Assembly: GCA_965207225.1 (NCBI GenBank)
Contig: CBDBLV010000001.1
Span: 128,001 to 192,000, forward strand
Length of the DNA: 64,000 nucleotides
Direction: 5' to 3'
DNA from: Dehalococcoidia bacterium
GTDB lineage: Bacteria > Chloroflexota > Dehalococcoidia > Plut-88900
The notes beneath the pieces are model-generated. The model was not told where the DNA came from, did no database searches, and saw only the letters and a list, made by a program, of their open reading frames with translations. Of the stretch, positions 20,682 through 39,160 are shown piece after piece (the stretch's first letter is position 1; the number at the start of each line of letters is the position of its first letter). Both the position numbers and the translations under genes were made by a program.

Positions 20682-21144
20682 GTCGCTTCTCCTTTGAATG
20701 AAGAAGCGGGACGGCCGCCACCCCCGTGGGGTGGAGACAGTCCCGCTCTGAATTGGCGTCCCGAATGGCCGGGACTGTCTCCGTGGGTTTTGTGTTGTCG
20801 CTGTGGCCGATGGCCGGCTGCGGCGTCCTCCGTATCGCTGTACTGGGCAGGCTCTACGTGGGGAAGCCGCGCGCGGGCAATGTCAGTGCCCGCCGTGCGT
20901 TGGGCATAGTTCCTCCTGGGTGGGTTAGTGGATGGGTGGTGCGGGACCGGGGTCCCGCAAGCAAGGGGGCGGAGCGGGCAAGCTCCGACGTGTGAAACGG
21001 CGTGGAGAGCCAGGACGAGGGGAGCGCTAGCTAGCGTCGTGCTCGACCCATGCAAGCAGAGTCAAGAGGGCGGCGCGCGCTGCCTGGGGGTGCAAGGTCA
21101 GCCGCGCCGCCCGGCGTCACCTGGGGTGTGCGCCGAGACCGTGG

Positions 21145-21612
21145 TCAGGGGCAGGCTTTCCCCAAGGGTCTCAGCCCCCGGAGGCTGCGCTCGGAGACTA
21201 CCTTGCCGGGCCGCCAGCGCATCCCCAGGACCGCCGCGACCTCCAGCGTCCCGTCGCCGTGGGCTACCAAGGCGGCGGCTCTCCCGACGCCCTGGGTGTA
21301 GACCATCGCTCCCCGGTCACCGAACCGCCGCTTCACCAACGGCCTCCACTCGGAGAACGCCCAGCGAGCCGCGCTCGGCGTCAGTGTCGCTACGTTCACG
21401 CTTCCCAGCGCCGCCAGCGCGCCGTCGATGTCCCCCGACTGCCTGAGCCGCCGGGCCTCGTGGATGGAGCGCGTCACGCTCGCCTCCACCGTCTCCGTCT
21501 CGACCCCGAAGCCCATCGCTTCAAAGAGCCGGTCCACCAGGTCCTCCAGGCTGCGCCTGGGCCGGTCCACCTCCATCGTCCTATTGCCGATTGCTGCCGT
21601 TGCCGTGGTCAT
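21145..21612 (-). CDS. Hypothetical protein (ICE backbone)
   Basis: AGGAGG RBS before ATG; plausible composition. Confidence 0.65.
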   Translation of the reverse strand: MTTATAAIGNRTMEVDRPRRSLEDLVDRLFEAMGFGVETETVEASVTRSIHEARRLRQSGDIDGALAALGSVNVATLTPSAARWAFSEWRPLVKRRFGDRGAMVYTQGVGRAAALVAHGDGTLEVAAVLGMRWRPGKVVSERSLRGLRPLGKACP

Positions 21613-21670
21613 CGTGTACCTCCTGTGCCTTTGTTTCTGATGCCTTGAATCCGTTGCGCCCGGTTTCGGG

Positions 21671-21709
21671 AAAAGAAGAAGGGGTCGGCTCCAAACCGGA
21701 GCCGACCCC
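21671..21709 (-). terminator. Intrinsic terminator
   Basis: GGGGTCGGCTCC/GGAGCCGACCCC stem followed by a U-rich tract on the minus strand. Confidence 0.75.
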
Positions 21710-22811: not shown

Positions 22812-23687
22812 CTAAGCGCGCCCCGGCCACCAGCGGCTTCGCCACAGGCCGCACGTCAGCGCCTTCCACAGCAGGTATCTCCAGGCCAGCGCCCTGCGGA
22901 CCTCGTGGAGGGTGTCCTTGCGCCAGGTGAGCTGTGTGCTTCGGTAGAGTCCGTGCAGCGGCTCCGTCTCCGGCGGCAGGGTCATCCCGTACTCTTCGAG
23001 CAGGGCCACCTCCAGGCTACGGACCCGCGCCTCGGTCTCCAGCCACGCCAGGCCCTTACCTGTGCCAGTGTGCCCCGCCTTCCAGATTTCGCGCCACTCC
23101 TCGATGAGGGGCCACGCCTCGCCGAAGACCTCCTCGTCGTCGGGAGCTGGCTCCTTCGTCACCAGATCGGGATACAGCCGCTTCGGGTACCTGGCCATCG
23201 GCGACGGCTTGTCCGTCGCCGGGGCCTTCTCCGGCGCGTCTCCGGTTGCGTCCTGGGCCTCTGCCGGTTCCGCCGTGGACTCCCTCGTGGTCTCCAGGCG
23301 AGTCAGCTTACCCTCGACCTTAGCCAACGCGCGGCCCTGCTCCCCACCCAGGGTCTTGACCTCGCCCCTGACGGCATCCAGACCCTCGTGAAGCTCCTTC
23401 GCCAGACTCTCCACGCGACGCTCCAGCGCATCGTTGCGCTTCCGCTGGCGGGCGGCGGCCGAGCCTGCGCCCTCCTGGAGGCCCCGCTCCAGCGCCTCTC
23501 GGACCCGCCACGACATCCCTTCGCCGTCCATGCACGCTCCCACCGTTCGTGGGTCGAGACCCAACTCTTCGGCGGCCCTGATGCGTCCCTTCGTTCGCAC
23601 CATGTCGTGCAGCAGCGCCTTGAGCCGGAGGACGTATTCCTCATCGGCGTCTCCGCCCTCGGTCATGACCTTCTCACTCGACTCCAT
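22812..23687 (-). CDS. Hypothetical protein, N-terminal HTH-like region plus coiled coil
   Basis: GGAGGAGG RBS; RAAEELGLDPRTV HTH-like segment. Confidence 0.7.
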   Translation of the reverse strand: MESSEKVMTEGGDADEEYVLRLKALLHDMVRTKGRIRAAEELGLDPRTVGACMDGEGMSWRVREALERGLQEGAGSAAARQRKRNDALERRVESLAKELHEGLDAVRGEVKTLGGEQGRALAKVEGKLTRLETTRESTAEPAEAQDATGDAPEKAPATDKPSPMARYPKRLYPDLVTKEPAPDDEEVFGEAWPLIEEWREIWKAGHTGTGKGLAWLETEARVRSLEVALLEEYGMTLPPETEPLHGLYRSTQLTWRKDTLHEVRRALAWRYLLWKALTCGLWRSRWWPGRA

Positions 23688-23700
23688 CAGTCCCTCCTCC

Positions 23701-23884
23701 TGCAACTTGCAGAGTTTTGCAGCTTTTCGTCGATTTCGAGCAGTTGCAACTTGCAGATTCCAAACGTGAGCGATGCATATTTCGTCGCAACCGGCCCCTG
23801 CCACAAAGTGTTCGCTGTTCACGTCCTGTAGGGGCTGCTTTCCCCCTGTTCCAGCTTTGAAACACGACCGATCTGCAACTTGCA
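23701..23884. promoter_or_regulatory. Three palindromic TGCAACTTGCA operator-like sites in a divergent intergenic region
   Basis: Exact copies at 23701, 23745, 23874. Confidence 0.6.
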
Positions 23885-23975
23885 ACCAAACCCGTTTCTC
23901 TGTACTACCCCATGACATCACGGCTGCCCCTTGGCGGGTATCCCCTGGAAGGGGCTATCACGAATGAAACGGTTG

Positions 23976-24073: not shown

Positions 24074-24691
24074 TTGGAACGGTACTCGACCATCCGGCGG
24101 ACCCTTAGAAGAGCCAGGAGGCTGATGCCCCTGGCCGCCGCACTGCTGCTTGCGGCGCTTATTGCCGTACCCCCGAGCAACCTCGCCCTGGCCCAATCGC
24201 CGCCCGGCAACGAGATCACCCTGGTCAACGAAGACCGGGAATTCGTCGAGCGCAAGAAGGGCGGCGAGTTCGTCGCAAGACCCATCTTCGACCGCAAGGT
24301 GGCCGACCTCTTCTACGCAGTCCGGGACGCCGACACCGGCGACTGGATAAGCGCCATGTACCGGGTCCGGGGCGGCGAGAAGAAGCGATCAGACGGTTGG
24401 GAGTACTCCTGGGAGTATCCCAAGCTGGACGAGCAGCCCGACCTCGACCCCGACCGGGCCTACCTGCTGGTCATGCTGGCGCACGCCGAGGACGGCAAAC
24501 GGGGCGACTTCTACGCCGTCGTCCCCATCCACCAGCCGGGACGCATCTGGGACAAGATTCTGAGTGCCCTCAACCCCTCCCGCTGGGCCAGGGCCGCAGC
24601 CGGGTGGGTGATCGAGGGGGTCCACGGGACGCTGTGCGGCGTGGTGGAGCGGGCCTCGGGCGAGGACGCCGACAACTGTGAGGGGAGCTAG
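24074..24691 (+). CDS. Exported protein, first gene of the conjugation operon
   Basis: Signal peptide (ALA/Q); close homolog at 63059-63673. Confidence 0.75.
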   Translation: MERYSTIRRTLRRARRLMPLAAALLLAALIAVPPSNLALAQSPPGNEITLVNEDREFVERKKGGEFVARPIFDRKVADLFYAVRDADTGDWISAMYRVRGGEKKRSDGWEYSWEYPKLDEQPDLDPDRAYLLVMLAHAEDGKRGDFYAVVPIHQPGRIWDKILSALNPSRWARAAAGWVIEGVHGTLCGVVERASGEDADNCEGS

Positions 24692-24694
24692 CCC

Positions 24695-25675
24695 ATGAGC
24701 GACATCCTCACCGGGACTCCTCCCGACCTCACCTACGCACATGACCTGGTTCAGCAGGCGTGGATGGTCGTCTGGGCCATTACGTCGGGCGCACTGGTGG
24801 TCATCCTCGGCTGGATGGGCCTCTCGCTCATCGTGTCAGAGCACCTCGGAAGGTCTCAGACAGGTTGGCGGGAGATGGTGCCGAGACTGGTGTTGGGCCT
24901 TGTTGCAGCGGCGTCCTCCCTTTGGTGGTGCGCCCTGGTCATCGACGTTGCCGACGCCGTGTCCGGCTTCGTCGCGGTATCTCTGAACGTCACCGCCGGA
25001 GACATGCTCCGCTCAACCCTCAAGACTCTGCTCACCGCCGTGAACGCCGGGAGTGTGGGGATGGCGTTGCTGCTGGCCCTTCTCTACCTGGTCTACGGCT
25101 TCTTCGTCCTCTACGTCATCGTGCAGATGATCCTGCGCCTCGCGCTGATAGACATTCTCTTGGCTTTGGCTCCCATCGCGTTGGGGCTGTGGATTCTGCC
25201 GCACACGGCGGGCTGGGGCCGCCACTGGCTCAGGCTGTTCATGACGACGGTGTTCCAGCAGGCGATCCAGCTCATTGCGTTGGCCCTGGGGTTCGGGTTC
25301 CTGAACGAGGTTGCTCAGATAGCCGCCTTCGAGCCGGTGCAGGACCTGGTGTGGAAGCTCCTCATGTCGCTGGCCTTCGTCTACATGGCGACCCGCGTGC
25401 CGTCTCTTCTTGGGAACGCCGGGACCTTCGACGCCTGGCTGAGCACCCTCTACTTCGGGATGAACCTACCCGCGTCGATGGTGCGGTCGGCCCGGACCAT
25501 CGGGCTTGTGGCGGGCGGAGCCGCCGGAGGTCCCGGCGGAATGGCCGTGGGAGCGGTTGCGGCCAGCGCTGGTCTGTCGGCTGCGGCGAGCGGTCTCAAC
25601 TCTGCGGCGTCGATGGCCACCCCATCGGGTGGTGGGGACATGGGCGGCGAGGCCCCTAGGAGCGCCAACGAGTGA
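24695..25675 (+). CDS. VirB6/TrbL-like polytopic T4SS membrane protein
   Basis: Several TM helices, R...I.ILLALAPIA..LWILP motif, Gly/Ala tail, operon context. Confidence 0.75.
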   Translation: MSDILTGTPPDLTYAHDLVQQAWMVVWAITSGALVVILGWMGLSLIVSEHLGRSQTGWREMVPRLVLGLVAAASSLWWCALVIDVADAVSGFVAVSLNVTAGDMLRSTLKTLLTAVNAGSVGMALLLALLYLVYGFFVLYVIVQMILRLALIDILLALAPIALGLWILPHTAGWGRHWLRLFMTTVFQQAIQLIALALGFGFLNEVAQIAAFEPVQDLVWKLLMSLAFVYMATRVPSLLGNAGTFDAWLSTLYFGMNLPASMVRSARTIGLVAGGAAGGPGGMAVGAVAASAGLSAAASGLNSAASMATPSGGGDMGGEAPRSANE

Positions 25676-25834
25676 TTTTTCAAAGAAGGCGAGAACCCAT
25701 GAGGTGCGGGCTAAGAAGCCCGGCCCAATCGAAAACGAGGAGGTGGGAGCGATGTGCAGGTAAGTGATCTAAGGCAACCCAACCGATAGCAACGAGCAAG
25801 AGACTCCGAAACGGAGATCAAAAGGAGAGACGTA

Positions 25835-26116
25835 ATGGAAGAACTGACACAGACCATATCGAACCTTGTGGGGATCGGGTTGGGAATCGTGGGGGCCGTT
25901 GGCGTGGGCTTCTTCATCTACGGGGCCTACCTGTACCTGACGGCATCGGGAGCGCCCCACCAGATGGAGCGGGGCAAGAGCGCCATGATGACCGCCCTGG
26001 CGGGCGTCGTGCTGGCCATGGTGGTGGAGCTGGTGATGAACGCCGTGGTGGGTTCCCCGGTGGAGATCGACGTGCCCGACCCGGCCACGCCCACGCCTGA
26101 GACCAAGAACAGCTAG
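25835..26116 (+). CDS. Pilin-like (VirB2/TrbC) small membrane protein
   Basis: IYGAYLYLTASG....ERGK..M..AL.G pattern. Confidence 0.7.
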   Translation: MEELTQTISNLVGIGLGIVGAVGVGFFIYGAYLYLTASGAPHQMERGKSAMMTALAGVVLAMVVELVMNAVVGSPVEIDVPDPATPTPETKNS

Positions 26117-26135
26117 GCGAAAGGGGAAGAAAAAA

Positions 26136-27839
26136 ATGAGAGAACACGAGGTACCGACTCACGTGCAGGCCGAGGACAGGGTGCTGCTGTGGTTCACCTT
26201 CCCGCAGGTCGTGGCGGTGGTGGCGGTGTGCGCCCTGTCCTACGGCGCATACCGCTACGCCCCGGTGGGGCCGTCCGAGGTGAGGATGGGACTCGCCGTC
26301 CTCATGGGCCTCATCGGGCTTGCCGCTGTCGTGGGAAAGATAGGGGGTCGGCGGCTGCCGTTGGTGGCCGCCGACCTGCTGAAGTACCGGCTGGGGGCGA
26401 GGCTCTATGCGGGTCCGGTCTCCCAGTTGGTGCTGTCCGAGCCGCCCGCGCCTGCGCAGCCGGTGAGGAGCGGCCCCGGCCCCTTGAGCCTGATGACGAA
26501 GAAGGTCGGCAGAACCCTGCGCCGCCTTCGACGGAGGCGCAAGCTGCGGAACAGGCGTAGGGACCGCCGCAACGGACGGATGCCGTTTCGTCCCCATGGT
26601 TGGTTCGGCAAGCGCCGCCGCAAGGAGAACAGGAACAGCCAGGGCCACGGACCCAAGGGCTGGATGGCGGTGGTGGCCGCCGTCGCTCTGGCGGCGGCCA
26701 CGGTCGTCCCTCAGGCAGCCCTGGCCGACGGCCACGAGCCGTGGCGGGATGAGATCGACTTCGAGGTGACCGAGCCGGTGGAGGGCAGGCGGATATTCGT
26801 CGAGGGCCTCACTGTCTCCGGCGACCGGGCCGCAGTGAAGCTCAGGGCGGCGACGGACCTGGACATCCGGGTACGCGCCTTCGGCGGCAGCCAGGGCACG
26901 TCCCTGCGCTTCTGGGGTTCGGCGTCCCTGGGCGAGGGGGAGACCATCGACTACTCCCTGCCCCTGCACGGCCCACTGCCGTCCTTCACGGTCTCGTGGG
27001 AGGACACCCTGGGGCAGGCGGGGGCGCTCACCATAGAGCACGACCGCATCCCGTACCCGCTCCCTGAATTCGAGGGAGAGCTGTGCGACCTGAGCGTGAC
27101 CTCCCTTGGCTGGACGCCAGGAGCAGTCAGCGGCGTGATCGAATCGGAGTGCGTGTCCGACATCGAGGAGCCGGTCGAGCTTCAGACGGTGGCCGGACAC
27201 GAGAGTGTCACCGAGACGGCGCTCATGGAGGCCGAGGTGCCTTCCATAACCGGGTCGGTAGTTGCCACGACGAGAGCATCGACCGCGAGCGTCGCATTCG
27301 TCCCCGACGGGGAGACGAGCTTCCGGCTCGCCGCGCCCACCGGCGAGGCGATTCACGCTCTGAGCGTGGACGTGAGCCTTGAGGCGAACCTCAGCATCCC
27401 CATCCCGCCGCTGACGACGCTCACCCACCACCCGGAGCGGACGGAGGAGCGCACCGAGACGGTGAGCCTGTGGAGGCCGGGGGCGAGCGACTCTGACAGC
27501 GACAGCGAGACCATCACCGTCACCCACGACGATGGCACGACCACGGACCACACGGTGTCCGCCTATGCCTACGCCCATGTGCCGGGCACGACGATCCAGA
27601 AGCAGGTCACGCTCACCATCGTCCATCCCGAACACGTCAAGGCCGAGACGACCGACCGAGCGCCCCTCACCAGGGCAAGGGAAGAGTCCCTATCCCTGGC
27701 GTCCGCCGTCGGGTCCGACGACGCCTTCGCCGTCCTGATTTTGCCGGAGCCTGAGCCGGAGGACCCGCCCGCTGAGCAGACTTCCGGCGGCGATCTGACC
27801 GACTGGTTCCGAAGACTGGGATGGGAGTGGCCCTGGTGA
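26136..27839 (+). CDS. PrgI (VirB3-like) domain fused to a large exported domain
   Basis: VPTHVQAEDRVLLWFTFPQ PrgI-type N-terminus, 2 TM, internal signal-like segment. Confidence 0.72.
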   Translation: MREHEVPTHVQAEDRVLLWFTFPQVVAVVAVCALSYGAYRYAPVGPSEVRMGLAVLMGLIGLAAVVGKIGGRRLPLVAADLLKYRLGARLYAGPVSQLVLSEPPAPAQPVRSGPGPLSLMTKKVGRTLRRLRRRRKLRNRRRDRRNGRMPFRPHGWFGKRRRKENRNSQGHGPKGWMAVVAAVALAAATVVPQAALADGHEPWRDEIDFEVTEPVEGRRIFVEGLTVSGDRAAVKLRAATDLDIRVRAFGGSQGTSLRFWGSASLGEGETIDYSLPLHGPLPSFTVSWEDTLGQAGALTIEHDRIPYPLPEFEGELCDLSVTSLGWTPGAVSGVIESECVSDIEEPVELQTVAGHESVTETALMEAEVPSITGSVVATTRASTASVAFVPDGETSFRLAAPTGEAIHALSVDVSLEANLSIPIPPLTTLTHHPERTEERTETVSLWRPGASDSDSDSETITVTHDDGTTTDHTVSAYAYAHVPGTTIQKQVTLTIVHPEHVKAETTDRAPLTRAREESLSLASAVGSDDAFAVLILPEPEPEDPPAEQTSGGDLTDWFRRLGWEWPW

Positions 27840-28150
27840 GGCGCATCGCGACCATAACGCTGTTCGCCATATCAGCCCTCGTTTCGATGGGAGCTACGCC
27901 GGAGGAGGAAGCGGTGCTTCACGCCTTCGACGCGGTGTTGACCGCGATGGCCTACGCCGCTGCCGGACTCTGCGTGTTCGCCATCGTCTGGGCGGGGTTC
28001 GTCCTGATGGCCGAGGGCGCGGAGGAGCGGGGCGGCGGCAGGGCCAAGAGCGCGGTGGTGATGGCCGTCGTCGGCCTGGTGCTGGTGCTCCTGGCCAAGG
28101 GCGTCGCCGCGCTGCTGAGAAGCGGCATCGTTCCGATTCCTACTCCCTAG
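27821..28150 (+). CDS. Second pilin-like membrane protein
   Basis: IVWAGFVLM...RAKSAVVMAVVGLVLVLLA; homolog at 59622-59954. Confidence 0.65.
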   Translation: MGVALVRRIATITLFAISALVSMGATPEEEAVLHAFDAVLTAMAYAAAGLCVFAIVWAGFVLMAEGAEERGGGRAKSAVVMAVVGLVLVLLAKGVAALLRSGIVPIPTP

Positions 28151-28169
28151 ACATCACAAGGAGACGACG

Positions 28170-30437
28170 TTGAAGCAGTTGCTCAAGAGAATCACGAGGC
28201 GCGGAGGGGAGAGTCCACTCGAAGTGGCAGCCGCCCCGCAGGACATTTCGGAGGCCGACCCCTCCTTGGCCTCCGAATCCACCGAACCCCGGGTCCCCGC
28301 GCCGAAGCCTATACCGGAGCTACCGCTCTTCTTCATGTTGTCGCACCTGGACGACGACGGCCCCGTCCGCCTGGACGGGGTGAAGCTCGGCGTGTGCGAG
28401 GTGATGGGGCTGGAGCTTGACGAGCCGAAGCTGGGGGCCTTCGCCGGGGCGCTCAACGCCCTCGACTTCCCCGTGCAGCTACTCATACGCCAGCACCCGC
28501 CGCGTCTTGGCGGGCTGAAGGACAAGCTCAGGGATGCACAGCCGGAGAACCTTCCACCGCAGACGAAGGCGGCCGCCGAGTCGCTGAACCGGCTCCTCAC
28601 CGACCTGGAGGCCCGGGACGGCATCCTCGACCGGCGCTTCTACGCCGTCTGCGAGCACGCTCGCATCGACGAGCTGCGCGGCCTGCTGGCGCGTGCAGGA
28701 CTCTCCGTCCATCCACTGAAAGGCCGCCAGCTTCGCATGTTCCTCGTAGCGGCCACCCTGGGAGGCACCCCCACAGACGTGGACGAGAGTGAGGAGGTCG
28801 AGGTGCAGGTCAACCGACGTGACATGCGCGTCGGCGGCCGGCTCGTTCGCTCCCTGCACCTGGGCAAGTGGCCGAGGTCGTTGGCCCCAGGGTTCCTGCA
28901 AGGGTTGATGGCGGCGGGAGCGCCCATGGACCTGTCCATCCACCTGGGGCCGATACCGGCGGAACAAGCCGCCCGCACCCTCGAATGGCAGAAGGTCCGC
29001 TTCGAATCGGCGCAGTCCCTCTCCTTCAAGCGGGGCAGAACCATGTCCCCCGAGGCGGAGATCGCCCTGGAGGACGTGACCCGGCTCAGGGACGAGGTGC
29101 AGCGAGGCCGGGAACGTCTCTTTCACTCGTCGCTGTCCGTCACCCTTCACGCCAAGGATGAAGATTCCCTGAAGGAGATGACCCAGCGAGCCAAGGCGCA
29201 CTTCGCCGCCACGTTGGGCAAGCTGGACAACCTGGCCTTCCGTCAGCGGGAGGGTTTTCTGTCCACGCTGCCCCTGGCGCTGAACGCCGTGGCCGAGTGG
29301 CGCACCCTGGACACGTCGTCCCTGGCGCGGCTGTTCCCCTTCTCGCCGCCGGACCTGGACACCCGCAGCGGCACCCTCTACGGCATCGACATGCGAGCCT
29401 GTTCCCCCGTGGTCTACGACCCCTGGGACGGCACGCACCTCAACGCCAACACCGCCGTCCTCGCAAGATCGGGAAGCGGCAAGTCGTTCGCAACCAAGCT
29501 CGGCGTGCTCAGGGGCCTGACGCGGGGCGTCACCGCCTACGTCATCGACCCGGAGGGCGAGTACGCGGACATGGCGAGGGCCGCCGGAGGCAGGGTCCTG
29601 TCCCCCGGCGTGGAGGGCCAGGGCATGAACCCCTTCGTCATCGACCGGGGAGACGACGAGGAGCTGCTCCAGCGCATCGGCAGCCTGAGAAGGCTCATCG
29701 AGGTGATGGTGGGAGAGAGCCTCGGCGCGGAGCGCAGGGCCTCCCTAGACCACGCCCTGGCGGGCTACTACGCCCAACACAGGGAGCGCACCGGCTTCAG
29801 GGATTTTTACAAGTATCTCGAAGGGCAAGCGCCCGACATCGCCCACCTGCTGCGTCCCTTCGCCACAGGCAGCCTGCGCAACCTCCTCTCCGACGAGGGG
29901 GACGACCTTCTCGGCAACGAGGCGTTGGTGACCGTCTTCGACCTGCGGCTCTTGGAGCCGGAGTTGCGACCAGCCGCCGCGATGGTCTGCACCGAGACGG
30001 TGTGGGCGGCGGCCGCCCAGAATCCCAAGCCCCGCCTGCTGGTGGTGGACGAGGTGTGGAGCATCATGCAGCACCCCGAGGGCGCGGCCTTCATGGTCAG
30101 CATGGCGAAGCGCGCGAGAAAACACCGGCTGGGGTTGCAGTTCATCACCCAGGACGTGCAGGACCTGCTCTCCGAGGACTCTTCGAGGACCATCACCGGC
30201 CATTCGGGAAGGGCATTGCTACAGAACGCCGCCTTCAAGCTGCTGCTTCAGCAGGACGCGGCGGCGATAGCCACCGTGGGTGACGCCTTTGACCTGCCCG
30301 AAGACCTCCAGCGCTGGCTGCTGTCCTGCCCCCGTGGTGACGGGCTGCTTCTGGCCAGGGGGCACCGATTCCCGGTGCGCATAGAGGCGACCCCGGAGGA
30401 GACGGAAGTCATTGAATGGAGGCCGGGAAAGCACTAG
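28170..30437 (+). CDS. virB4: VirB4-like conjugative ATPase
   Basis: Walker A ARSGSGKS, IDPEGEY, Walker B LVVDEVW, KRARK, ITQ. Confidence 0.88.
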   Translation: MKQLLKRITRRGGESPLEVAAAPQDISEADPSLASESTEPRVPAPKPIPELPLFFMLSHLDDDGPVRLDGVKLGVCEVMGLELDEPKLGAFAGALNALDFPVQLLIRQHPPRLGGLKDKLRDAQPENLPPQTKAAAESLNRLLTDLEARDGILDRRFYAVCEHARIDELRGLLARAGLSVHPLKGRQLRMFLVAATLGGTPTDVDESEEVEVQVNRRDMRVGGRLVRSLHLGKWPRSLAPGFLQGLMAAGAPMDLSIHLGPIPAEQAARTLEWQKVRFESAQSLSFKRGRTMSPEAEIALEDVTRLRDEVQRGRERLFHSSLSVTLHAKDEDSLKEMTQRAKAHFAATLGKLDNLAFRQREGFLSTLPLALNAVAEWRTLDTSSLARLFPFSPPDLDTRSGTLYGIDMRACSPVVYDPWDGTHLNANTAVLARSGSGKSFATKLGVLRGLTRGVTAYVIDPEGEYADMARAAGGRVLSPGVEGQGMNPFVIDRGDDEELLQRIGSLRRLIEVMVGESLGAERRASLDHALAGYYAQHRERTGFRDFYKYLEGQAPDIAHLLRPFATGSLRNLLSDEGDDLLGNEALVTVFDLRLLEPELRPAAAMVCTETVWAAAAQNPKPRLLVVDEVWSIMQHPEGAAFMVSMAKRARKHRLGLQFITQDVQDLLSEDSSRTITGHSGRALLQNAAFKLLLQQDAAAIATVGDAFDLPEDLQRWLLSCPRGDGLLLARGHRFPVRIEATPEETEVIEWRPGKH

Positions 30438-30581
30438 CCGGCAGCGTTGAACACGAAACGAGACGGCCCGATAGAGGCCGGGAAAGGGAGGAGACATGAC
30501 GAGCGACGGACACGGAACAGGCGAAGCGAGACATAGCGACTACGGACCGAGTGAAGACCTCAATAGAGAAAGGAAGAGAAC

Positions 30582-33176
30582 ATGAAGATGAACCCGATGA
30601 ACTGGCTGACGAACGATGAAGGAAAGAAAAAGCCGGTGCTGCTGGCGGTGACGCCGCCGAGGAAGGACGAGCGCACCATGCTGGGCGTGGAGAACATGCT
30701 CCAGTCCATCGCGGTGCCCGAACCCTTCTCCCTGGAGCTTGCCGGGGACGCCGACGGCGTGACGCTCCTGACCCGCTGCCTGGACGACCAGGTGGTGCGC
30801 GGCCAGATCGCCGCCCACTACCCCCAGGCCCGCATCGAAAGGGTGCCGATGGATGAAGACCCGCTGCGGCTGGGGGAGGACGAGCGGGCGTGGGGGATGA
30901 CGATCCGGGCCGACGGCCCGGAGTACGTCCCCATCCGCACCTTCCGGGACGACGACCTGCTGGACCCCGGCTCCGACCCCATCATCGCCCTGCTGGGCTC
31001 GCTGTCCAACCTGCGCCGGGACGAGCGCGTCGTGGCGCGGCTGATGCTGAACTCCCTGGGACCGGACTGGTCGCAGCACCACCAGGAGAAGGCCCACAGG
31101 CCCGCCGTGGAGCAGAGGCGCGACCCCTCCTACACCTACCAGACCAGGCCCCTGCGGATGGACGGCGTGACCATGGCCGTTCTGGGCGTGGGAACCGTCG
31201 CCGCCCTCCAGGGCTACCTGTGGGTGCAGGCGGGGCAGACCTGGAAGGCCGTGCTCCTGGGCATCGGCGTGAGCGGCGGACTGGCCGCCGCCGGCTGGCT
31301 CTGGCACCGCATCAAGAAGGCCCGCAACCGCGTCTACGACCCGAACCTCATCAAGGAGAAGGTCTCCCGCGTCGCCTTCGCCGGGGAGATACAGGTGACG
31401 GCGATACTGCCCGCCGACGCCGGACCCAAGCGCGCCAATGAACTGCTGGGGCAGGTCGCCGCGGCCTACCGCCACTACGACCACCCGGCGGGGGCCAGGC
31501 TCAAGGCGAGCAGGGTGAGGCCCGTCGTCCCCGATCCGGAGAACCTTCACCCAGGCCCCGGCCTTTTCGGGCGGCGCAGCGTCTTCGGGATGCGCGAGGC
31601 GGCGGCGCTGTGGCACCCGCCGGGAGCGCGTGACGAGACTCCCCTCGTGGGGAGGTCGGGTTCGAGGGCGCTCATCCCCTCCGCAAGGAACGTGAAGGGC
31701 GGCGCGCTGGTGGGCGACACCACTGCCGGAGCGAAGAGGGATATCCGCTTCCCCGACGACCTGCTGCGCCGCCACCACCTCTACGTCGCCCGCACCCGCA
31801 TGGGCAAGTCCACCCTGATGCACCACGTCGTCAGGCACAAGATGGAGGAGAAGGCGGCGGGCAGGGACTCAGACGCCATCGTCGTCGTCGATCCCCACGC
31901 AGACCTGGTGGAGGGCATCCTCCAACACGTGCCGGAGAAGATAGCCGGCAGCGTGCGGCTCATCGACCTTGCCGACGAGCGGGGATCGCCCGGCGTCAAC
32001 CTGCTGGACACCCGCGTCTTCTCCGACCGCGACCGCACCGCCGACTCGGTGGTGCGCGTCGCCAGGGGCCTCTGGGACCAGTGGGGGCCGAGGATGCAGT
32101 CCATCCTCGAACAGACCGTCAAGACCCTCCACGAGGCCAACGAGCAAACCGACGCCGACGAGCAGTACACCATCCTCGACGGCCTCAAGCTGCTGTCCGC
32201 GGACAGGAAGTCCAGGGGCGAGGCGCCGTCAGAAGACCAGAAGTTCAGGGACAGGGTGCTGGCGAAGGTGAGCGACCCCTACCTCAAGGACTGGTGGGAA
32301 AGGGACTTCAAGAACTGGACCCACCAGTACCGGGCCGAAGCGCTGGCCCCGGTGCAGACCCGCCTCAACTACTACGCATCGTCCAAGCGGGCGCGGGCCA
32401 TCCTGGGACAGCGCCGCTCCACCATCGACCTGCGCAAGACCATCCTCGACGGCGGGATACTGCTGGTGTCCACCGCCCAGGGGACGGCGGGCCGGGACGT
32501 GGCCGCCCTGGTGGGGTCGTCGATCCTCAACCTCGTGGACGCCGTGATCCGGGAGCAGGGAAGCCTGCCGCCCGACAGGCGTCGCGGGGCGCTGGTCGTC
32601 GTGGACGAGATGCAGTCGATGCCCGGCGTGGACTACGAGAGCATGTTGTCGGAACTTGGGAAGTTCGGCGCGTCCTTCGTGCTGGCGACCCAGAGCCTGG
32701 CCAAGCTGGACGACCTCTCCCGCACCATGCGCGACACCATCCTTGCCAACGTCGGCTGCCTCGCCGTCTTCCAGGTGGCGGGGAACGACGCCCGGCAGCT
32801 GGTGTGGGAGCTTGGCAAGGATCGGGTGACAGAGGACGACATCACGTCGCTGCCCGTGCACCAGTGCTACGTCCGCGCCACCGTGGGCACCGAGCGGATG
32901 GACGCCTTCTCCATGGCGGTCAGGAAGCCGGAGCCGGGAGACGTCGAAAGGGCCGAGCGCATCCGCGCCGCCGCGTCCTCCTACGTCACGGCGGCCAGGG
33001 ACATCGCCGCAGGGAACGCGGAGTGCGACGGGAAGCAGGAGCAGCAGGGGGAGACGGAGAACGGTCAGGCCAAGGCCGAGCATAAGAAACCGGGGCAGCC
33101 CCCCAAGAATCACAAGGGGCGTACCCGGAACCCCAAGCCGTCGAAGCCCAAGACCGGCGACGGAGCGTCCTCGTGA
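30582..33176 (+). CDS. virD4: VirD4/TraD-like type IV coupling protein
   Basis: 2 TM; RHHLYVARTRMGKST, VDPH, VVDEMQ, ELGKFG, LATQ, ILANVG. Confidence 0.85.
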   Translation: MKMNPMNWLTNDEGKKKPVLLAVTPPRKDERTMLGVENMLQSIAVPEPFSLELAGDADGVTLLTRCLDDQVVRGQIAAHYPQARIERVPMDEDPLRLGEDERAWGMTIRADGPEYVPIRTFRDDDLLDPGSDPIIALLGSLSNLRRDERVVARLMLNSLGPDWSQHHQEKAHRPAVEQRRDPSYTYQTRPLRMDGVTMAVLGVGTVAALQGYLWVQAGQTWKAVLLGIGVSGGLAAAGWLWHRIKKARNRVYDPNLIKEKVSRVAFAGEIQVTAILPADAGPKRANELLGQVAAAYRHYDHPAGARLKASRVRPVVPDPENLHPGPGLFGRRSVFGMREAAALWHPPGARDETPLVGRSGSRALIPSARNVKGGALVGDTTAGAKRDIRFPDDLLRRHHLYVARTRMGKSTLMHHVVRHKMEEKAAGRDSDAIVVVDPHADLVEGILQHVPEKIAGSVRLIDLADERGSPGVNLLDTRVFSDRDRTADSVVRVARGLWDQWGPRMQSILEQTVKTLHEANEQTDADEQYTILDGLKLLSADRKSRGEAPSEDQKFRDRVLAKVSDPYLKDWWERDFKNWTHQYRAEALAPVQTRLNYYASSKRARAILGQRRSTIDLRKTILDGGILLVSTAQGTAGRDVAALVGSSILNLVDAVIREQGSLPPDRRRGALVVVDEMQSMPGVDYESMLSELGKFGASFVLATQSLAKLDDLSRTMRDTILANVGCLAVFQVAGNDARQLVWELGKDRVTEDDITSLPVHQCYVRATVGTERMDAFSMAVRKPEPGDVERAERIRAAASSYVTAARDIAAGNAECDGKQEQQGETENGQAKAEHKKPGQPPKNHKGRTRNPKPSKPKTGDGASS

Positions 33177-34855
33177 ACCCCGACGAACGCACGCTGCTCT
33201 TGATGCGGCGGCTGGCCTCCATGCCGTTTCTCGACCGGCTGGAACTGGCCGCCGTGTCGGGTACGCCCGACCGCTCCACCTACTATGCCGTGGACGATCT
33301 GGAACGGGAGGGCCTGGCGGTTTCGATCTCGCACGCCACCGACCTGCTGCGCACCACCAGACGCTACTCTCTCACGACCGCCGGGCTGAGTCGGCTCGCC
33401 GCACGGGAAGACGTGGGCCTGAACGAAGTACTCCGCGAACACCCGGTCTCCGCTCAGTGGCGGCGCATCCTGATGGAGCGGCTCGACGCCGTGGGCGTCA
33501 TATACCGGCTGGCGTCGTCCATCGCTGCCGAGACGGGACCCATCCGGCTGCGCTGGTACAGGGCCGCGCCCCTGGACGCCTCCGTCGAGCTCGCCGACGG
33601 CAGGACCCTCGGCGTGGTCAGGCAGGGGCTCACGTCGGACAGGACGGGGTTCGCAAAGCGTCTCTACCGGCTCGGCGAAGGGCCGCTTCCCGGAGCCGTC
33701 CTCATGCTCGTGTCCGACGAGGTGCGGCTGAGGCACGCCCGAAGAACGCTGGCCGACTCTCACCTGCCGGCCGTCCTCGCCCTGGAGCGGGACGCGACGT
33801 GGGCAGGCCCCTCGGAAAGGGTCTGGCGTCTGCCCTCCGTCGCCGCCGCCCTCGACCTGCGCTACGTCCTGTCGTCCTACCTCGAAACGGGAGGACGGCT
33901 GATCACCGAACCGGAGCCGTCGCGGGCGACCCTCCCGGAGGACTTCATACTGGAAAGCCCGGGGATGGGGACGCCCGACTGGCTGCTGCCCGCACTGCTG
34001 AAGCCCGCCGGGAAGCGCGTCCTCGACCTGCTCTTCGACTGGCCGGGCATAGCCCCGGGCGACCTTCGCGGGCTGCTCGGCGTCTCCCGCGGCCGGTTCT
34101 ACGAGATCGTTGCGCCCCTGGCCGAGGCCGGGCTGATCGAACGGATCGTCATAGACGGCCGCCGTCTGGCCCTCAGCGACCGGGGGCTGGCATTGCTAGC
34201 CCGCAGGGACCGCACCTCCGTGGGCGCGGCGAGGAAGCGGTGGAGCGTCTCTCCCACCGACGCAGCAGACGACGCCGTCGAGTGGCGCAACGTCTCCGGC
34301 AGGAGGAGCCGTCAACTGCTCAGGAATCTCGATCACACGGCGGCGGTCCACGGCTTCGTTGCGGCCCTGGCAAAGCAGGCGCGTTCCCTGGGCTGGGAAC
34401 CGGCGCAACTCGACCCGCCCATGCGGGCCGCCAGGCACTTCCGCCATAGGGAAAAGCTGCGCTCCGTCCACCCCGACGCCTTCGGCATCCTGCGCCGGGA
34501 CTCCACGACGTGGCCCTTCTTCCTGGAGTGGGAGCGCCGCGCCGTGCGCCCATCGACCATGGCGGCCCGGCTCGCCCCCTACCTGCGCTACTACTCCTCC
34601 GACAGGCCCGACGACGACCACGGCGCACGGCCCGCCGTCCTCGTCGTCCTCCGCGACGACGTCACCGCCATCAACTTCCTGCGGGTGGCGAGGGAGCGGA
34701 TGACGGAGGCCCGCGTGGAGATGCCCCTGCTGGTCTCCCACGAGGGGCTGCTTGCGCGGGAGGGGCCGCTGGGACGGGCATGGCGCACTCCCGATGGGTG
34801 GGAGGCCGTCCGCGCCCTTCCAAACATTCGAGAAAAGAATACGAGAAAGAGGTAA
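33173..34855 (+). CDS. Replication-relaxation family protein (putative relaxase), tandem double domain
   Basis: wHTH + LDHT..H, HPDAFG, FLEWER, RL..Y..YY; overlaps the T4CP stop codon. Confidence 0.75.
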   Translation: MNPDERTLLLMRRLASMPFLDRLELAAVSGTPDRSTYYAVDDLEREGLAVSISHATDLLRTTRRYSLTTAGLSRLAAREDVGLNEVLREHPVSAQWRRILMERLDAVGVIYRLASSIAAETGPIRLRWYRAAPLDASVELADGRTLGVVRQGLTSDRTGFAKRLYRLGEGPLPGAVLMLVSDEVRLRHARRTLADSHLPAVLALERDATWAGPSERVWRLPSVAAALDLRYVLSSYLETGGRLITEPEPSRATLPEDFILESPGMGTPDWLLPALLKPAGKRVLDLLFDWPGIAPGDLRGLLGVSRGRFYEIVAPLAEAGLIERIVIDGRRLALSDRGLALLARRDRTSVGAARKRWSVSPTDAADDAVEWRNVSGRRSRQLLRNLDHTAAVHGFVAALAKQARSLGWEPAQLDPPMRAARHFRHREKLRSVHPDAFGILRRDSTTWPFFLEWERRAVRPSTMAARLAPYLRYYSSDRPDDDHGARPAVLVVLRDDVTAINFLRVARERMTEARVEMPLLVSHEGLLAREGPLGRAWRTPDGWEAVRALPNIREKNTRKR

Positions 34856-34861: not shown

Positions 34862-35617
34862 ATGCGTCTGTACTACATCGACGAGTCCGAGGGACCCACC
34901 TGCTACGTCCGCTCCGCCCTGGGCGTGGACGCCGAACGGTGGAACGACCTGTTCGCCGACATCCAGGAGTGGAGAAGCGAACTGCACGAGGGCTACGGCA
35001 TCCCGACCGACAGGGAGCTCCACGCCTGCGACCTGCTGGCGGGGAGAGGGATGCTGGCCCGAAACGGGGAAATCAACGCGCGACTCACGCCCTCCCAGGG
35101 AGCCGAGGTCTTCAGGGACGGGCTGCGCCGCATTGAGGACGCCGCCCGCACCGGCGGCGTGGAGGTCATCAACGTCTGCCTGAGAAAGTCCGACGTGAAG
35201 GCGCACGAGCAGGTCAGCCTCGACCGGCTGCTCAACCGCATCAACGCCTCGGTCAAGGCGGCGGGGGGACACGCCTTCCTCATCTTCGACGAGGGCAAGG
35301 AGCGGATGATCACACGGGCCTATAGACGGCTCAGGATATTCAACCCCGTGCCCAGCAGGTACGAGCGGTGGGAGGAAGGCGAGAGGACCAGGAACATCCC
35401 CGTGGAGAACGTCATCGGAGACCCCGCCTTCAGAAGCTCCGACTCGGACCACCTGCTCCAGATGGCCGACCTCGTCGCCCACGCCCTGCTCAAGCAGGAG
35501 GAGGAGCCCGTCCCCAGAGTGGAGACCCACGGCATCCGCGAAGCCTTCTCCATACTCGACAAGGCCCTCAACCGGAGAGCGTCAGGGCACGATCCCCAGG
35601 GCATCGTCAGGCGATGA
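34862..35617 (+). CDS. DUF3800-family protein
   Basis: YIDES, ELH, IFDE, LQMADLVA motifs. Confidence 0.8.
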   Translation: MRLYYIDESEGPTCYVRSALGVDAERWNDLFADIQEWRSELHEGYGIPTDRELHACDLLAGRGMLARNGEINARLTPSQGAEVFRDGLRRIEDAARTGGVEVINVCLRKSDVKAHEQVSLDRLLNRINASVKAAGGHAFLIFDEGKERMITRAYRRLRIFNPVPSRYERWEEGERTRNIPVENVIGDPAFRSSDSDHLLQMADLVAHALLKQEEEPVPRVETHGIREAFSILDKALNRRASGHDPQGIVRR

Positions 35618-35663: not shown

Positions 35664-35951
35664 CTATTCCTCTACCTTGTCGTCAAGACCTCGCCCATAG
35701 ATCATCAACTCGAAGCCGCCCGGCACGGAGCGAGACAGCTGCACGATACCGTAGTAGCTGCCACCCTTCGGTCTCGCCCCTCCCCTCAGCCACGTCTGAA
35801 CGGTGCCTTCCTTCACGCCCAGGAGCCGGGCTAGGTCCTGCCGCGACAGGCCCGCCATCTCCAACAGGCGTTTCAGCCGTTGCGGAAAGTCCTCCGGCCA
35901 GCCCGGTGAGCGGAAATCCTTGAGGCTCCCTTCATGTCCTTCGACTGTCAT
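35664..35951 (-). CDS. XRE-family HTH protein
   Basis: FPQRLKRL..AGLSRQDLARLLGV...TVQTW; GAGGAGG RBS. Confidence 0.78.
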   Translation of the reverse strand: MTVEGHEGSLKDFRSPGWPEDFPQRLKRLLEMAGLSRQDLARLLGVKEGTVQTWLRGGARPKGGSYYGIVQLSRSVPGGFELMIYGRGLDDKVEE

Positions 35952-36029
35952 TGCGCCACCTCCTCGGTTGATGTTTCCCGATCGGCCTCCTCGTCCAAAT
36001 GGCAGAGGTCGGCCCGTTCCCAAGCCCGG

Positions 36030-36470
36030 CTAAGCGGAATCCCGCAACCCTTTGTCGGCGCTGCCATTCAGGGAGTCAGCCACTGCTGCGACCAGCAGGG
36101 CCATCGCGGTGGGCAGGTAGAACAGCCCGATGGAGAGTATCCCCACAAGGCATAAGGCCAGGAGAGCCAGCGCCGATATCCACAACAACGCCTTTCGCCT
36201 CGCCAGCCCGGCATCGGTGAAACGGATGACCAGCAGCGTTAGGCCAGAGAACAGAATGGGAATGAGCAGCAGCCAGAGCACGTACAGACCATTCACTTCC
36301 ACCAGGGTGGCGGTGTGCCTTGTCACCTCTCCCGCAGGCTCACCCGGCATGGACAGAGTGACCGATACACCCCGATAGACGGGTGCGAAGACGAACCAGA
36401 GCCCGGCGACCCAGGCCAGCGCATGGGCTACCCACGCCGAGATCGCGGCAACTCCGGCTCGCTTCATCAT
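36030..36470 (-). CDS. Hypothetical multi-pass membrane protein
   Basis: Several hydrophobic helices; AAGGA RBS. Confidence 0.7.
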   Translation of the reverse strand: MMKRAGVAAISAWVAHALAWVAGLWFVFAPVYRGVSVTLSMPGEPAGEVTRHTATLVEVNGLYVLWLLLIPILFSGLTLLVIRFTDAGLARRKALLWISALALLALCLVGILSIGLFYLPTAMALLVAAVADSLNGSADKGLRDSA

Positions 36471-36497
36471 TCCATCCTTTGGGCCAAGAAGCGGAGG

Positions 36498-36816
36498 CTA
36501 CGCCCCGTCCAACTCGTATTCAGGGCCAACCCACCGTATCCGCACCCACGTCATCGTCGTGTACATCAGGTGGTTGTAGCAGCGCGAAATGGCCTCCCTG
36601 GTGTATTCCTCTATCTCCTCGTCGCCGACCCCGCCCTCCCTCAGGGAGTTTTGCACCCGCTTCAGTATGCGGGACGCGTCGGGGTTGTCCGGGCTGTAAG
36701 TCTCCGTCCTCCTCGTCGTCTGCGTCATTCCCGTAATAGACGAAGGGGTACGCTTCCCAGATATCGACCTCGATGTTCGGGTATCTCACTCCCAATTCGA
36801 TCATTCTTCCAGCCAT
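36498..36816 (-). pseudogene. Frameshifted small mobile-element protein
   Basis: RYPNIEVDI in one frame and ILKRVQNSLREGGV..EEIEEY..EA....YNHLM.TTM.WV in another, resembling one phage/plasmid family; shift near 36700. Confidence 0.5.
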
Positions 36817-36892
36817 TTGCTCCCCTTCATTCGCTTTCACAATGGGGTCTGGACGCTGCTGGTCAACAGCTACTTCTAGGTGATGCGGGCAT

Positions 36893-37321
36893 TCACTCCA
36901 TCGGGAGGGGCGGCTGTAGCCAAGCCATCTCCTGCGGCACCCCGAAGTGCTCGGCCACCTCCCAGAGCTCGCTGAGGCCCTCGGCCATCGCCTCGTCCAC
37001 GTCCATCAGCAGGGCGCGGGCGAAGTCCTCCGCCTCCCGCTCGAAGAGGCTGCCCAGGCTGGTGTGGTCCCGTATCCACAGGTGGTTGCCGGAGTGCAGC
37101 AGCCTGTGGCCTATGGCATGAGCTATCACCCAGCGTCGCCAACGGGAATCGAGCCGCTCGGCCACGCCGATGTACCGGTCCATCTGCATCTCCTCCTGGA
37201 CATCCAACGGCCAGGTCACCACCTCCAAGCCCAGGATGCTGGCCACGGTCTCGGCGTCCACCCGGCCCGACAGCTTCAGCTTTCGCCGCAGATCTCTGGC
37301 CTTCCGCTGCGCTCGCTTCAT
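36893..37321 (-). CDS. ImmA/IrrE-family metallopeptidase-like protein (HEXXH degenerate: HAIGH)
   Basis: RRWVIAHAIGH..LH, EREAEDFARALLM, VAEHFGV; coupled to the repressor gene. Confidence 0.82.
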   Translation of the reverse strand: MKRAQRKARDLRRKLKLSGRVDAETVASILGLEVVTWPLDVQEEMQMDRYIGVAERLDSRWRRWVIAHAIGHRLLHSGNHLWIRDHTSLGSLFEREAEDFARALLMDVDEAMAEGLSELWEVAEHFGVPQEMAWLQPPLPME

Positions 37322-37716
37322 CTTCCGTTCCTCTCCGTCCTCCGCCGCTGCTCCCGCACGAAGCGGATGAAGTTCATGATGGACTCGATGTCCTCCATGG
37401 GAAGGCCCTCGATGGCGTTGCGGAAGGAGACGTCGGCCTCCTTCAGTATCTCCGCCTCCACCACGTCCCGGCCAAGGAGCCAGTCGGTGCTCGTCTCGCA
37501 CTGGTAGGCAAGCTCCAGTAGATGCTCCGGGGTGGGCTTCATCTTCCCCGACTCCCAGGACCAGACGGCGTGGGAGCTGACCCCGACCAACTCGCTCACT
37601 TGTTTCTGGGTGAGGCCGACCTTCAGCCGCGCCTCCTTGATGCGGGCTCCGATGCTCTTCCAGCGGTAGCCCGGGTCTATGGTCATGGGTTCCGGCCTCT
37701 CTTGGTCAACGCTCAT
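37318..37716 (-). CDS. ImmR-like XRE repressor
   Basis: IGARIKEAR...GLTQKQVSELVGVS..AV..WESG..KP, DWLLG. Confidence 0.88.
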   Translation of the reverse strand: MSVDQERPEPMTIDPGYRWKSIGARIKEARLKVGLTQKQVSELVGVSSHAVWSWESGKMKPTPEHLLELAYQCETSTDWLLGRDVVEAEILKEADVSFRNAIEGLPMEDIESIMNFIRFVREQRRRTERNGR

Positions 37717-37745
37717 AGGCGATCATAATCCACGATTAGGAGTAT

Positions 37746-37788
37746 CGCACACTTGTTCTTGACAAGCTACTTGCGATATGATTACACT
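37746..37788 (+). promoter_or_regulatory. ICE early promoter with adjacent LexA-like box
   Basis: CGCAC-ACTT-GTTCT (37746-59) abutting TTGACA (37759), TACACT 18 nt later. Confidence 0.5.
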
Positions 37789-37831
37789 ATATCATAAGTG
37801 TAGCTTAGAGTACAGGAGACTATCTTTCCCC

Positions 37832-38378: not shown

Positions 38379-38381
38379 CGC

Positions 38382-38657: not shown

Positions 38658-38725
38658 GGCGCTGCACCCCTGGCATAGGGCCACGCCCCGTCCTCCAAGG
38701 CCCTGCGATGCTCCCCGTCGAGTTT

Positions 38726-38780: not shown

Positions 38781-38835
38781 GACAAGAGCACGCCTGTTCG
38801 CTATCTGAAGACGAGCCCCGCCTTCGGCGTCGAAC

Positions 38836-39126: not shown

Positions 39127-39160
39127 TGCTGTTTATGCAAATATGTTATGCTGAAGCATC

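Follow-up and report, generated by a model that had tools for sequence, protein, structure and literature searches.

The transfer module of ICE-1

The window analysed here is a stretch of 64,000 nucleotides (G000:C1:128001-192000, GC content ~65%) from the 4.03-Mb, five-contig assembly of a Dehalococcoidia bacterium (92.3% complete, 8.3% contamination). It carries a putative integrative and conjugative element (ICE), termed ICE-1, and part of a second one, ICE-2. The core of ICE-1 is a transfer module at 24074-34855 on the forward strand, which consists of eight co-directional, tightly packed open reading frames (ORFs) with a strong third-position GC bias. Pfam families were assigned by a scan of 39 window ORFs, which left aside eight small ORFs (65-107 aa) and four ICE-2 ORFs at 51380-52981. 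The module contains the following genes (window positions, strand):

24074-24691, +, exported 205-aa protein (no Pfam family)
24695-25675, +, VirB6/TrbL-like polytopic membrane protein (PF04610, 27.9 bits, cut-off 25.9, E 2.5e-6)
25835-26116, +, VirB2-like pilin 1 (T4SS_pilin PF18895, 45.0 bits, cut-off 26.6, E 1.1e-11)
26136-27839, +, PrgI/VirB3-like fusion protein, 567 aa (no Pfam family)
27821-28150, +, VirB2-like pilin 2 (PF18895, 29.3 bits, cut-off 26.6, E 9.3e-7; TrbC below cut-off)
28170-30437, +, VirB4-type ATPase (Pfam P-loop_TraG, AAA_10, TraC_F_IV)
30582-33176, +, VirD4-type coupling protein (TrwB_AAD_bind over cut-off, E 5.6e-9)
33173-34855, +, Replic_Relax relaxase candidate (PF13814, 33.9 bits, cut-off 25.3)

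Structure models were obtained with AlphaFold2 for the two proteins without a Pfam family. The 205-aa exported protein, modelled from a 29-sequence alignment, consists of an N-terminal transmembrane (TM) or signal segment, a beta-sandwich resembling immunoglobulin (Ig) or fibronectin type III (FnIII) domains and C-terminal helices. The predicted local distance difference test score (pLDDT) was ~92 over residues 50-150, and the top Foldseek match in the PDB was the FnIII domain 4wtx (E 8.9e-4). The PrgI fusion protein begins with two helices, followed by a disordered basic linker, a third helix or TM segment and an all-beta ectodomain. Residues 220-526 were modelled as tandem Ig-like domains (pLDDT ~90), for which Foldseek returned tandem beta-sandwich proteins only. 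Six TM-like segments were counted in the VirB6-like protein and two in pilin 1, which matched the NCBIfam model for a pilin-like protein of mycoplasma ICEs (NF045849) weakly and below cut-off. For VirB4, the top NCBIfam model was the CD1110 family (233 bits, cut-off 325), followed by the mycoplasma model Mbov_0397 (NF045975, 159.6 bits against a cut-off of 590).

A second, inverted copy and exchangeable integrases

The initial annotation had noticed the same eight-gene order twice, and the order was recovered both times. The second copy belongs to ICE-2, lies inverted at 63673-53142 and shares 84% DNA identity with ICE-1 over 6.3 kb (blastn). All eight of its proteins matched their ICE-1 counterparts without stops at 57-95% identity in tblastn searches, from which the following features were placed:

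53142-54803, -, ICE-2 relaxase
54800-57331, -, ICE-2 coupling protein
57380-59743, -, ICE-2 VirB4
59625-59954, -, ICE-2 pilin
59936-61633, -, ICE-2 PrgI fusion protein
61634-61918, -, ICE-2 pilin
62075-63055, -, ICE-2 VirB6
63059-63673, -, ICE-2 exported protein

ICE-2 continues past the window edge. Each element has a large serine integrase:

41130-42728, +, ICE-1 large serine integrase, right end of the element (Pfam Resolvase, Recombinase, Zn_ribbon_recom)
49682-49758, +, tRNA-Ile (ARAGORN)
49701-51377, -, ICE-2 large serine integrase, 3' end overlapping tRNA-Ile (by sequence comparison, outside the Pfam scan)

ICE-2 is inserted at the 3' tip of tRNA-Ile, and in four copies the shared element sequence starts directly after ...CCACCA. 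An integrase, a relaxase candidate, a coupling protein and a VirB4-based channel thus lie together in one bounded integrated element, the set by which an ICE is defined. The two integrases are only 25% identical, and integrase matches found in 40 of the 73 related loci described below had a median identity of 27%, which bears out the initial annotation in calling the serine integrases interchangeable. In one more distant element (L116:15430-16611, of the second tier defined below), a tyrosine integrase stands where the others have serine integrases, and therefore the integration module is exchangeable even across recombinase superfamilies. The ICE-2-type integrase is present in the host genome in three copies at 98.6-98.8% DNA identity. 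Many further paralogues, at ~70-82% DNA identity, are spread over all five contigs and outnumber the VirB4 copies; the genome is therefore likely to contain many islands with an integrase but no transfer module, or decayed elements.

The ends of ICE-1 were also considered. In the run assemblies, zero-difference contigs of the unique flank start at 42693. A direct repeat marking attachment sites was sought by comparing 42650-42850 with 8900-11100, which share 9-mers only, and position 10904 was not taken as the left end, being a module boundary common to three mutually identical copies and not a proven element end. Over 36000-52000, the contigs of four runs show unitig breaks near the element ends (42693, 49715) and no joint that is informative about excision. 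In the same interval, contigs of runs X15-X18 that are at least 95% identical to element parts have a summed word depth 10-100x that of the unique flank. This depth is not a copy number; it does mean that closely related element copies occur in many more contexts of that sample than this chromosome.

Conservation and spread of the family

One-genome-per-species collections contained at least 405 related stretches, of which the best 80 were all titled Dehalococcoidia or Chloroflexi metagenome-assembled genomes (MAGs). All ICE-1 proteins were compared by tblastn with the 73 loci longer than 20 kb among these best 80. The eight module genes were found in 71-73 of the 73 loci, with the exported 205-aa protein present in every one and the VirB6-like protein in 72, and chance is by far insufficient to explain the recurrence. 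The initial annotation was right to propose a real ICE family. Frequent neighbours include genes for a protein of the Rad52/22 family (43 loci), for a DnaG-like primase (41 loci) and for a DUF7007 protein (27 loci). A VirB4 search of the host genome gave nine matches, namely six full-length genes, one gene split in two by ~2.2 kb and one contig-end fragment, which corresponds to at least seven element copies. Several MAGs among the best 80 stretches likewise have five or more copies.

The survey of Dehalococcoidia genomes suggested by the initial annotation was carried out on an even sample of 301 genomes of the class, 55 of which contained VirB4 matches, those across several families reaching 74-95% identity. 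Full-length matches with E = 0 and 76-95% identity were defined as the first tier and were found in 40 genomes from seven families; matches at 36-42% identity were defined as the second tier and occurred in 11 genomes. Across the phylum, 71 of 301 sampled Chloroflexota genomes had a VirB4 relative at E <= 1e-20 (two genomes in this tally are flagged as unpublished). The 205-aa exported protein is absent from second-tier loci, and residues 1-84 are the sole part of the PrgI fusion protein that is conserved in second-tier elements. Near-identical VirB4 sequences were observed across different families, for example in G251 (family f6) and G286 (family f59).

The best explanation of these data as a whole, which we consider probable, is that ICE-1 and ICE-2 belong to a large and very mobile ICE family of Dehalococcoidia (Chloroflexota) that is apparently undescribed. 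No description of such a family was found in the literature searched, whose coverage was of texts other than supplementary tables, and in the one study naming both Dehalococcoidia and VirB4 the passage on VirB4 concerns Patescibacteria.

Relaxase candidate and class of the transfer system

The last gene of the module does not encode an HUH relaxase, as had been noted initially, and carries a Replic_Relax (PF13814) domain instead. The ICE-1 match covers positions 80-189 of the 191 profile positions, and all 25 homologues examined from both tiers matched PF13814 (best E 8.1e-25). These proteins also contain MarR/PadR-type domains and have two N-terminal winged-helix domains. No variation was seen among the 25 sequences, the second-tier ones included, at five residues: H388, D435 (in a P-D-A motif), E452, R455 and Y470. 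A profile search of the PDB returned MarR-type regulators only, apart from one stray amidase row at E 0.16 that was dismissed as noise. According to a passage in PMC5357655, CONJscan recognises PF13814 proteins as MobC, and in passages of PMC12857230 and PMC11104534 MOBC appears as a non-HUH class with kinship to PD-(D/E)XK nucleases. Because of the PF13814 match and the equivalence of this family with MobC, the candidate is classified, on its sequence, as a divergent member of the described class MOBC. The initial annotation had regarded its proposal of an undescribed family as open to refutation if the module fell within a described mating-pair formation (MPF) or mobilization (MOB) class. 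With PF13814 equated to MOBC, the MOB half of this applies to the relaxase, and the family itself is the part for which no description was found.

As for the channel, a VirD4-type coupling protein (not TcpA/FtsK-like), a VirB6-like protein and a PrgI/VirB3-like protein, as in the set of MPF_FATA, are all present, the PrgI assignment being the weaker one. The VirB1-like hydrolase (TrsG/CD419/PrgK type) and VirB8-like protein (PrgL type) that lie near virB4 in MPF_FATA were not found. FATA-type systems are described in a passage of PMC5357655 as going with VirD4 and MobP, MobQ or MobC relaxases. The nearest plasmid relatives of VirB4 are from Streptomyces/Embleya (34-35% identity), Bacillota, a Chlorohelix plasmid and a Sulfolobus plasmid. 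Judged from these relatives, the collinearity with Embleya detailed below and the VirD4-type coupling protein, the predicted channel fits the monoderm FATA-like kind. MPF labels from MOB-suite were not used for typing; they assign a Lacticaseibacillus plasmid, a CD1110-family relative, to MPF_T.

Absence of a hydrolase and the walls of the hosts

The absence of a wall hydrolase and of recognisable VirB8-10 proteins, on which the initial annotation had built its case, was confirmed at several levels. Neither these components nor an HUH relaxase had a Pfam match among the 39 window ORFs, no hydrolase or VirB8 family was matched by NCBIfam in the module proteins, and no lysozyme-like, papain-like or NTF2-like fold was seen in the models of the 205-aa and 567-aa proteins. 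A search of the whole host genome, which covered the four families NLPC_P60, SLT, Peptidase_M23 and CHAP, gave no match. Within the reach of these searches, the machine is one without a peptidoglycan hydrolase or a VirB8-like wall-spanning subunit.

The initial annotation explained this absence by a general lack of peptidoglycan synthesis in Dehalococcoidia. For the host of the window this holds: neither FtsW/RodA nor a transpeptidase or penicillin-binding protein (PBP) was found in the 92.3% complete genome, a single Mur_ligase_M match was obtained, and by its gene content the host is wall-less. For the class it holds only in part, as FtsW/RodA was detected in 127 of the 301 Dehalococcoidia genomes (a tally that includes one genome flagged as unpublished). 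First-tier elements occur on both sides, with 26 of the 40 host genomes lacking FtsW and 14 having it. All five FtsW-positive first-tier hosts tested for PBPs have 3-5 matches, and none of five FtsW-negative hosts has any.

A rival explanation takes the loss of the hydrolase and of VirB8 for a specific adaptation to monoderm cells that have no wall, with the walled-host copies being recent arrivals that are trapped or use host autolysins. Besides the wall-less host and the FtsW-negative majority of first-tier hosts, the distant relatives speak for such a loss, since every one examined from a walled host has a hydrolase beside VirB4: NlpC/P60 in Embleya, CHAP in Lacticaseibacillus and M23 in Geobacillus (all on plasmids). 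Within the class, six of seven second-tier loci carry a 311-aa protein with SLT and NlpC/P60 domains, and all 11 second-tier host genomes are FtsW-positive, with none among the 174 FtsW-negative genomes. Between walled-host and wall-less-host copies, divergence is greatest in the surface-exposed proteins (37-51% identity for the PrgI fusion protein vs 75-83% for VirB4), and the same reasoning has been published for mycoplasma ICEs (in a passage of PMC12857230). In a 56-row VirB4 tree, the first tier divides by host wall status with a single change, but host kinship and wall status are confounded. The base of the first tier is moreover a polytomy, with long-branch warnings on three rows, and for this reason no claim is made on the type of host in which the hydrolase was lost.

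Against this adaptation stands the state of the module in walled hosts. The first tier is similarly frequent in FtsW-negative (26/174) and FtsW-positive (14/127) genomes, and the walled-host lineages f22, f38 and f16 form clades that are old and diversified and whose modules are intact, which is not the pattern of single recent arrivals. Gene content and order are unchanged in the 14 walled-host loci, which leave no space for additional genes and have no match to the second-tier hydrolase. In four walled hosts NlpC/P60 and CHAP gave no match, and a distance of at least 40 kb separates their SLT and M23 genes from every VirB4 copy. The scanned non-core ORFs of walled-host loci encode restriction-modification, defence, helicase, Rad52 and PKD proteins. 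G477 and G421, two genomes from a different class, have FtsW and PBPs and contain the full module, with 91-96% identity for the exported protein, VirB6 and VirB4. In the enlarged VirB4 tree, these two rows, which had not been part of the tree with a single change, nest within a clade of nine wall-less-host rows (SH-aLRT, the approximate likelihood ratio test, 99), and the VirB4 of G477 is 98% identical to that of ICE-2. Because the same module, with VirB4 up to 98% identical, is present in walled Chloroflexota, the absence of a hydrolase is not limited to wall-less hosts, and the machine therefore either needs no hydrolase of its own or borrows that of the host. Hydrolase absence is a trait of the whole first-tier lineage that suits the wall-less host of the window and is also compatible with walled hosts. 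The adaptation to wall-less cells proposed in the initial annotation, which the wall-less host and the hydrolases of distant walled-host relatives favour and the hydrolase-less module in walled hosts opposes, is not demonstrated; we regard it as possible but doubtful.

Comparison with known systems

The closest type IV secretion system (T4SS) operon was found on the linear plasmid of Embleya sp. NBC_00896 (NZ_CP108778.1, 274-286 kb) and in related Streptomyces records. It is collinear with the ICE-1 module in encoding a large membrane protein, a PrgI-family protein, a small protein, VirB4, a coupling protein and a replication-relaxation protein. VirB4 is 34% identical (E 2e-85), the coupling protein 28% (E 1e-36), the VirB6-like protein is matched at E 8e-5, and similarity of the relaxase is marginal (E 0.002). 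The Embleya operon differs in having an NlpC/P60 hydrolase gene directly after the relaxase gene and no annotated PF18895 pilin, and it resides on a plasmid in a walled actinomycete. MOB-suite left its relaxase untyped and called the plasmid 'non-mobilizable'. A side observation concerns residues 44-195 of the ICE-1 VirB4 (28170-28800), which show a weak likeness to the C-terminal part of the Embleya PrgI-family protein (E 0.002). The N-terminal extension of first-tier VirB4 is found as an ORF of its own upstream of VirB4 in one second-tier locus. Together, these two observations suggest that a domain may have moved across the boundary between the PrgI and VirB4 genes.

Mycoplasma ICEs (M. agalactiae and M. 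bovis type) share with the family a wall-less monoderm host, VirD4, VirB4, VirB6-like and VirB3-like proteins and the lack of VirB1 and VirB8, which a passage of PMC12857230 reads as a minimal apparatus for wall-less cells. The mycoplasma equivalog models were not reached (Mbov_0395, 28.2 bits against 40; Mbov_0397, 159.6 against 590). Unlike mycoplasma ICEs, the Dehalococcoidia family has large serine recombinases, a MOBC-type candidate relaxase and hosts that include walled bacteria. [quoted passage not shown] The likeness is one of component set; the Dehalococcoidia family has a relaxase candidate, coupling protein and integrase alongside. Another passage, in PMC12857230, states that VirB2 is found in no Gram-positive system except in Patescibacteria.

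The combination of a VirD4-type coupling protein, a PF13814/MobC relaxase and a serine integrase is known from streptococcal integrative and mobilisable elements (IMEs), namely IME_Class_8 (as given in part of PMC5357655). These are mobilisable elements without a mating channel of their own, unlike the Dehalococcoidia family. MOBC relaxases such as TraX of pAD1 share the non-HUH, PD-(D/E)XK-related character (a passage of PMC12857230), but the Dehalococcoidia protein, at 540-600 aa, differs from the IME_Class_8/TraX type in its two extra winged-helix domains.

Remaining gene content of ICE-1

Outside the module, the following features were recorded for ICE-1:

11000-12634, +, exported 544-aa protein, cadherin-like by weak leads; signal-peptide-like N-terminus, no Pfam family
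12641-12964, +, giant Calx-beta surface protein, N-terminal fragment (signal peptide and ~100 aa), cut off by an insertion sequence (IS)
12941-14827, +, IS with DDE_Tnp_1_4 transposase at 13009-14571 (Pfam) and terminal inverted repeats
14816-19348, +, remainder of the giant surface protein, five Calx-beta stretches (Pfam)
19524-20681, -, regulator with multiple helix-turn-helix (HTH) domains, Xre-type (Pfam HTH_3, three stretches); in 20/73 loci
21145-21612, -, conserved 155-aa protein; in 54/73 loci, no Pfam match, no TM-like segment
21745-22590, -, conserved 281-aa protein; in 28/73 loci and in walled-host loci, no Pfam match
22812-23921, -, conserved coiled-coil-like 369-aa protein, divergent from the transfer operon; in 69/73 loci
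34862-35617, +, DUF3800 protein, variable cargo (Pfam); in 16/73 loci
35664-36023, -, HTH protein (Pfam)
36030-36470, -, small membrane protein, in the regulatory region 35664-38071
37318-37716, -, HTH protein (Pfam)
37778-38071, +, HTH protein (Pfam)
39161-39874, +, ribbon-helix-helix (RHH)/PIN toxin-antitoxin pair, cargo (Pfam)
40212-40856, -, NYN-domain protein, cargo (Pfam)

The left part contains a giant Calx-beta protein, a probable adhesin by its domains. On contig C4 the giant gene is intact, with one frame of at least 1602 aa spanning the junction and the same starting residues. In ICE-1 the gene is split by the IS at ~12941-14827, and the element, called complete in the initial annotation, is not fully intact. 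At least nine copies of this IS are present in the genome at 100% identity, and very recent transposition bursts are therefore suggested. The flanking DNA is shared with other element copies in the host genome, with 95-96% identity to three of them over 10904-12940 and 88-94% identity to four over 14827-21687. For the 544-aa protein, cadherin-cluster leads in Protein Atlas scored 0.78 only and a PDB sequence search gave weak, unrelated matches only; its N-terminal 330 aa are without an assigned fold.

The transfer module can also no longer be called a minimal set of eight genes. Conserved along with it are three upstream genes (155, 281 and 369 aa) as well as HTH regulators, of which two in the regulatory region were found in 67 of the 73 loci each, and giant adhesin-like genes belong to the element in this genome. 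The true start of the 281-aa protein is probably downstream of the ORF start. The 369-aa protein has a median identity of 43% across loci and had no Pfam, NCBIfam or Protein Atlas match and no TM segment.

A non-canonical wall-opening activity could be hidden in one of the conserved proteins without an assigned function. The module stays intact in walled hosts, where some route through the wall is needed, and the three upstream proteins as well as the N-terminal 330 aa of the 544-aa protein would offer candidates. However, the 155-aa and 369-aa proteins have no export signal or TM segment, an Ig-like sandwich and not a catalytic fold was modelled for both exported proteins of the core, and no hydrolase was matched by Pfam or NCBIfam, which makes this explanation improbable.

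Two further observations were made in the window. Restriction-modification genes outside the elements, at 4218-7196 and 45483-47087, encode an Eco57I-like fused methylase/endonuclease (992 aa) and a PLD/DpnI_C-domain protein beside an N6_N4 methylase. Intergenic repeats of ~90-160 bp (320-484, 9000-9146, 47220-48377) are present in well over 100 copies at 70-96% identity on all five contigs and look like a family of repetitive extragenic palindromes (REP) or miniature inverted-repeat transposable elements (MITE).

Proposed transfer mechanism and implications

The gene content can be read as the following transfer route. The element would be excised by its large serine integrase, ICE-2 from the position shown at the tip of tRNA-Ile and ICE-1 with a different integrase from a different site. 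The non-HUH, MOBC-type candidate relaxase with its two winged-helix domains would bind and nick a putative origin of transfer, and the VirD4-type coupling protein would pass the DNA to a single-membrane channel of VirB4, the VirB6-like protein and the PrgI/VirB3-like anchor. The two VirB2-like pilins, the Ig-like ectodomain fused to PrgI, the small exported Ig-like protein and the giant Calx-beta/cadherin-like proteins may form the surface structure and mediate cell contact.

Several points weigh against reading the locus as a mobile ICE family whose machine lacks its own hydrolase. Neither excision nor a circular form nor transfer was seen in the data, which consist of assembled contigs of 18 runs and include no raw reads. 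ICE-1 itself may be impaired, its ~1600-aa adhesin gene being split by the IS. The relaxase is very divergent, with no match in tblastn against 72,556 plasmids at E 1e-3 and no relative in a phmmer search of the PDB, and its catalytic residues were inferred from conservation alone. Likeness to PrgI was judged from the topology and from the Embleya protein annotated as PrgI-family, which matched at E 0.008. The genome-wide search addressed four hydrolase families, so that others may have escaped it, the scan of walled-host loci covered 20 of the 27 larger non-core ORFs, and the three conserved proteins of 155, 281 and 369 aa have no assigned fold or function.

Use of the T4SS for contact-dependent exchange, DNA uptake or another non-conjugative function, which has been proposed for the Patescibacteria systems without a relaxase, would account for the shared set of VirB6, PrgI/VirB3, VirB4 and PF18895 pilins, mostly without VirB1 (PMC12102498, in part), but is very unlikely given the coupling protein and candidate relaxase in 71-73 of 73 loci with integrases alongside, the near-identical copies across families and classes and the multiple copies per genome. 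Returning to conjugation, we tentatively suggest, as the less certain extension of the ICE reading, a pilus-bearing monoderm conjugative T4SS that can do without its own hydrolase, passes between wall-less and walled hosts across classes of Chloroflexota and is the counterpart in conjugation, perhaps even the ancestor, of the T4SS without relaxase in Patescibacteria.

If this were true, VirB2-like pilins in monoderms would be no oddity of Patescibacteria, and a dedicated wall hydrolase would be dispensable for monoderm conjugation. The family unites pilins and the lack of VirB1 and VirB8 in one conjugative element and thereby bears on statements in both reviews (the passages in PMC12857230 and PMC12102498). 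It also offers a comparison that mycoplasmas lack, with related copies in wall-less and walled hosts and hydrolase-bearing cousins in the same class, and the need of a monoderm T4SS for its own wall hydrolase therefore becomes directly testable. Common typing tools miss such relatives, whose plasmids MOB-suite labels non-mobilizable. For uncultured Dehalococcoidia, the family seems to act as a major vehicle by which genes flow and defence-system cargo is carried.

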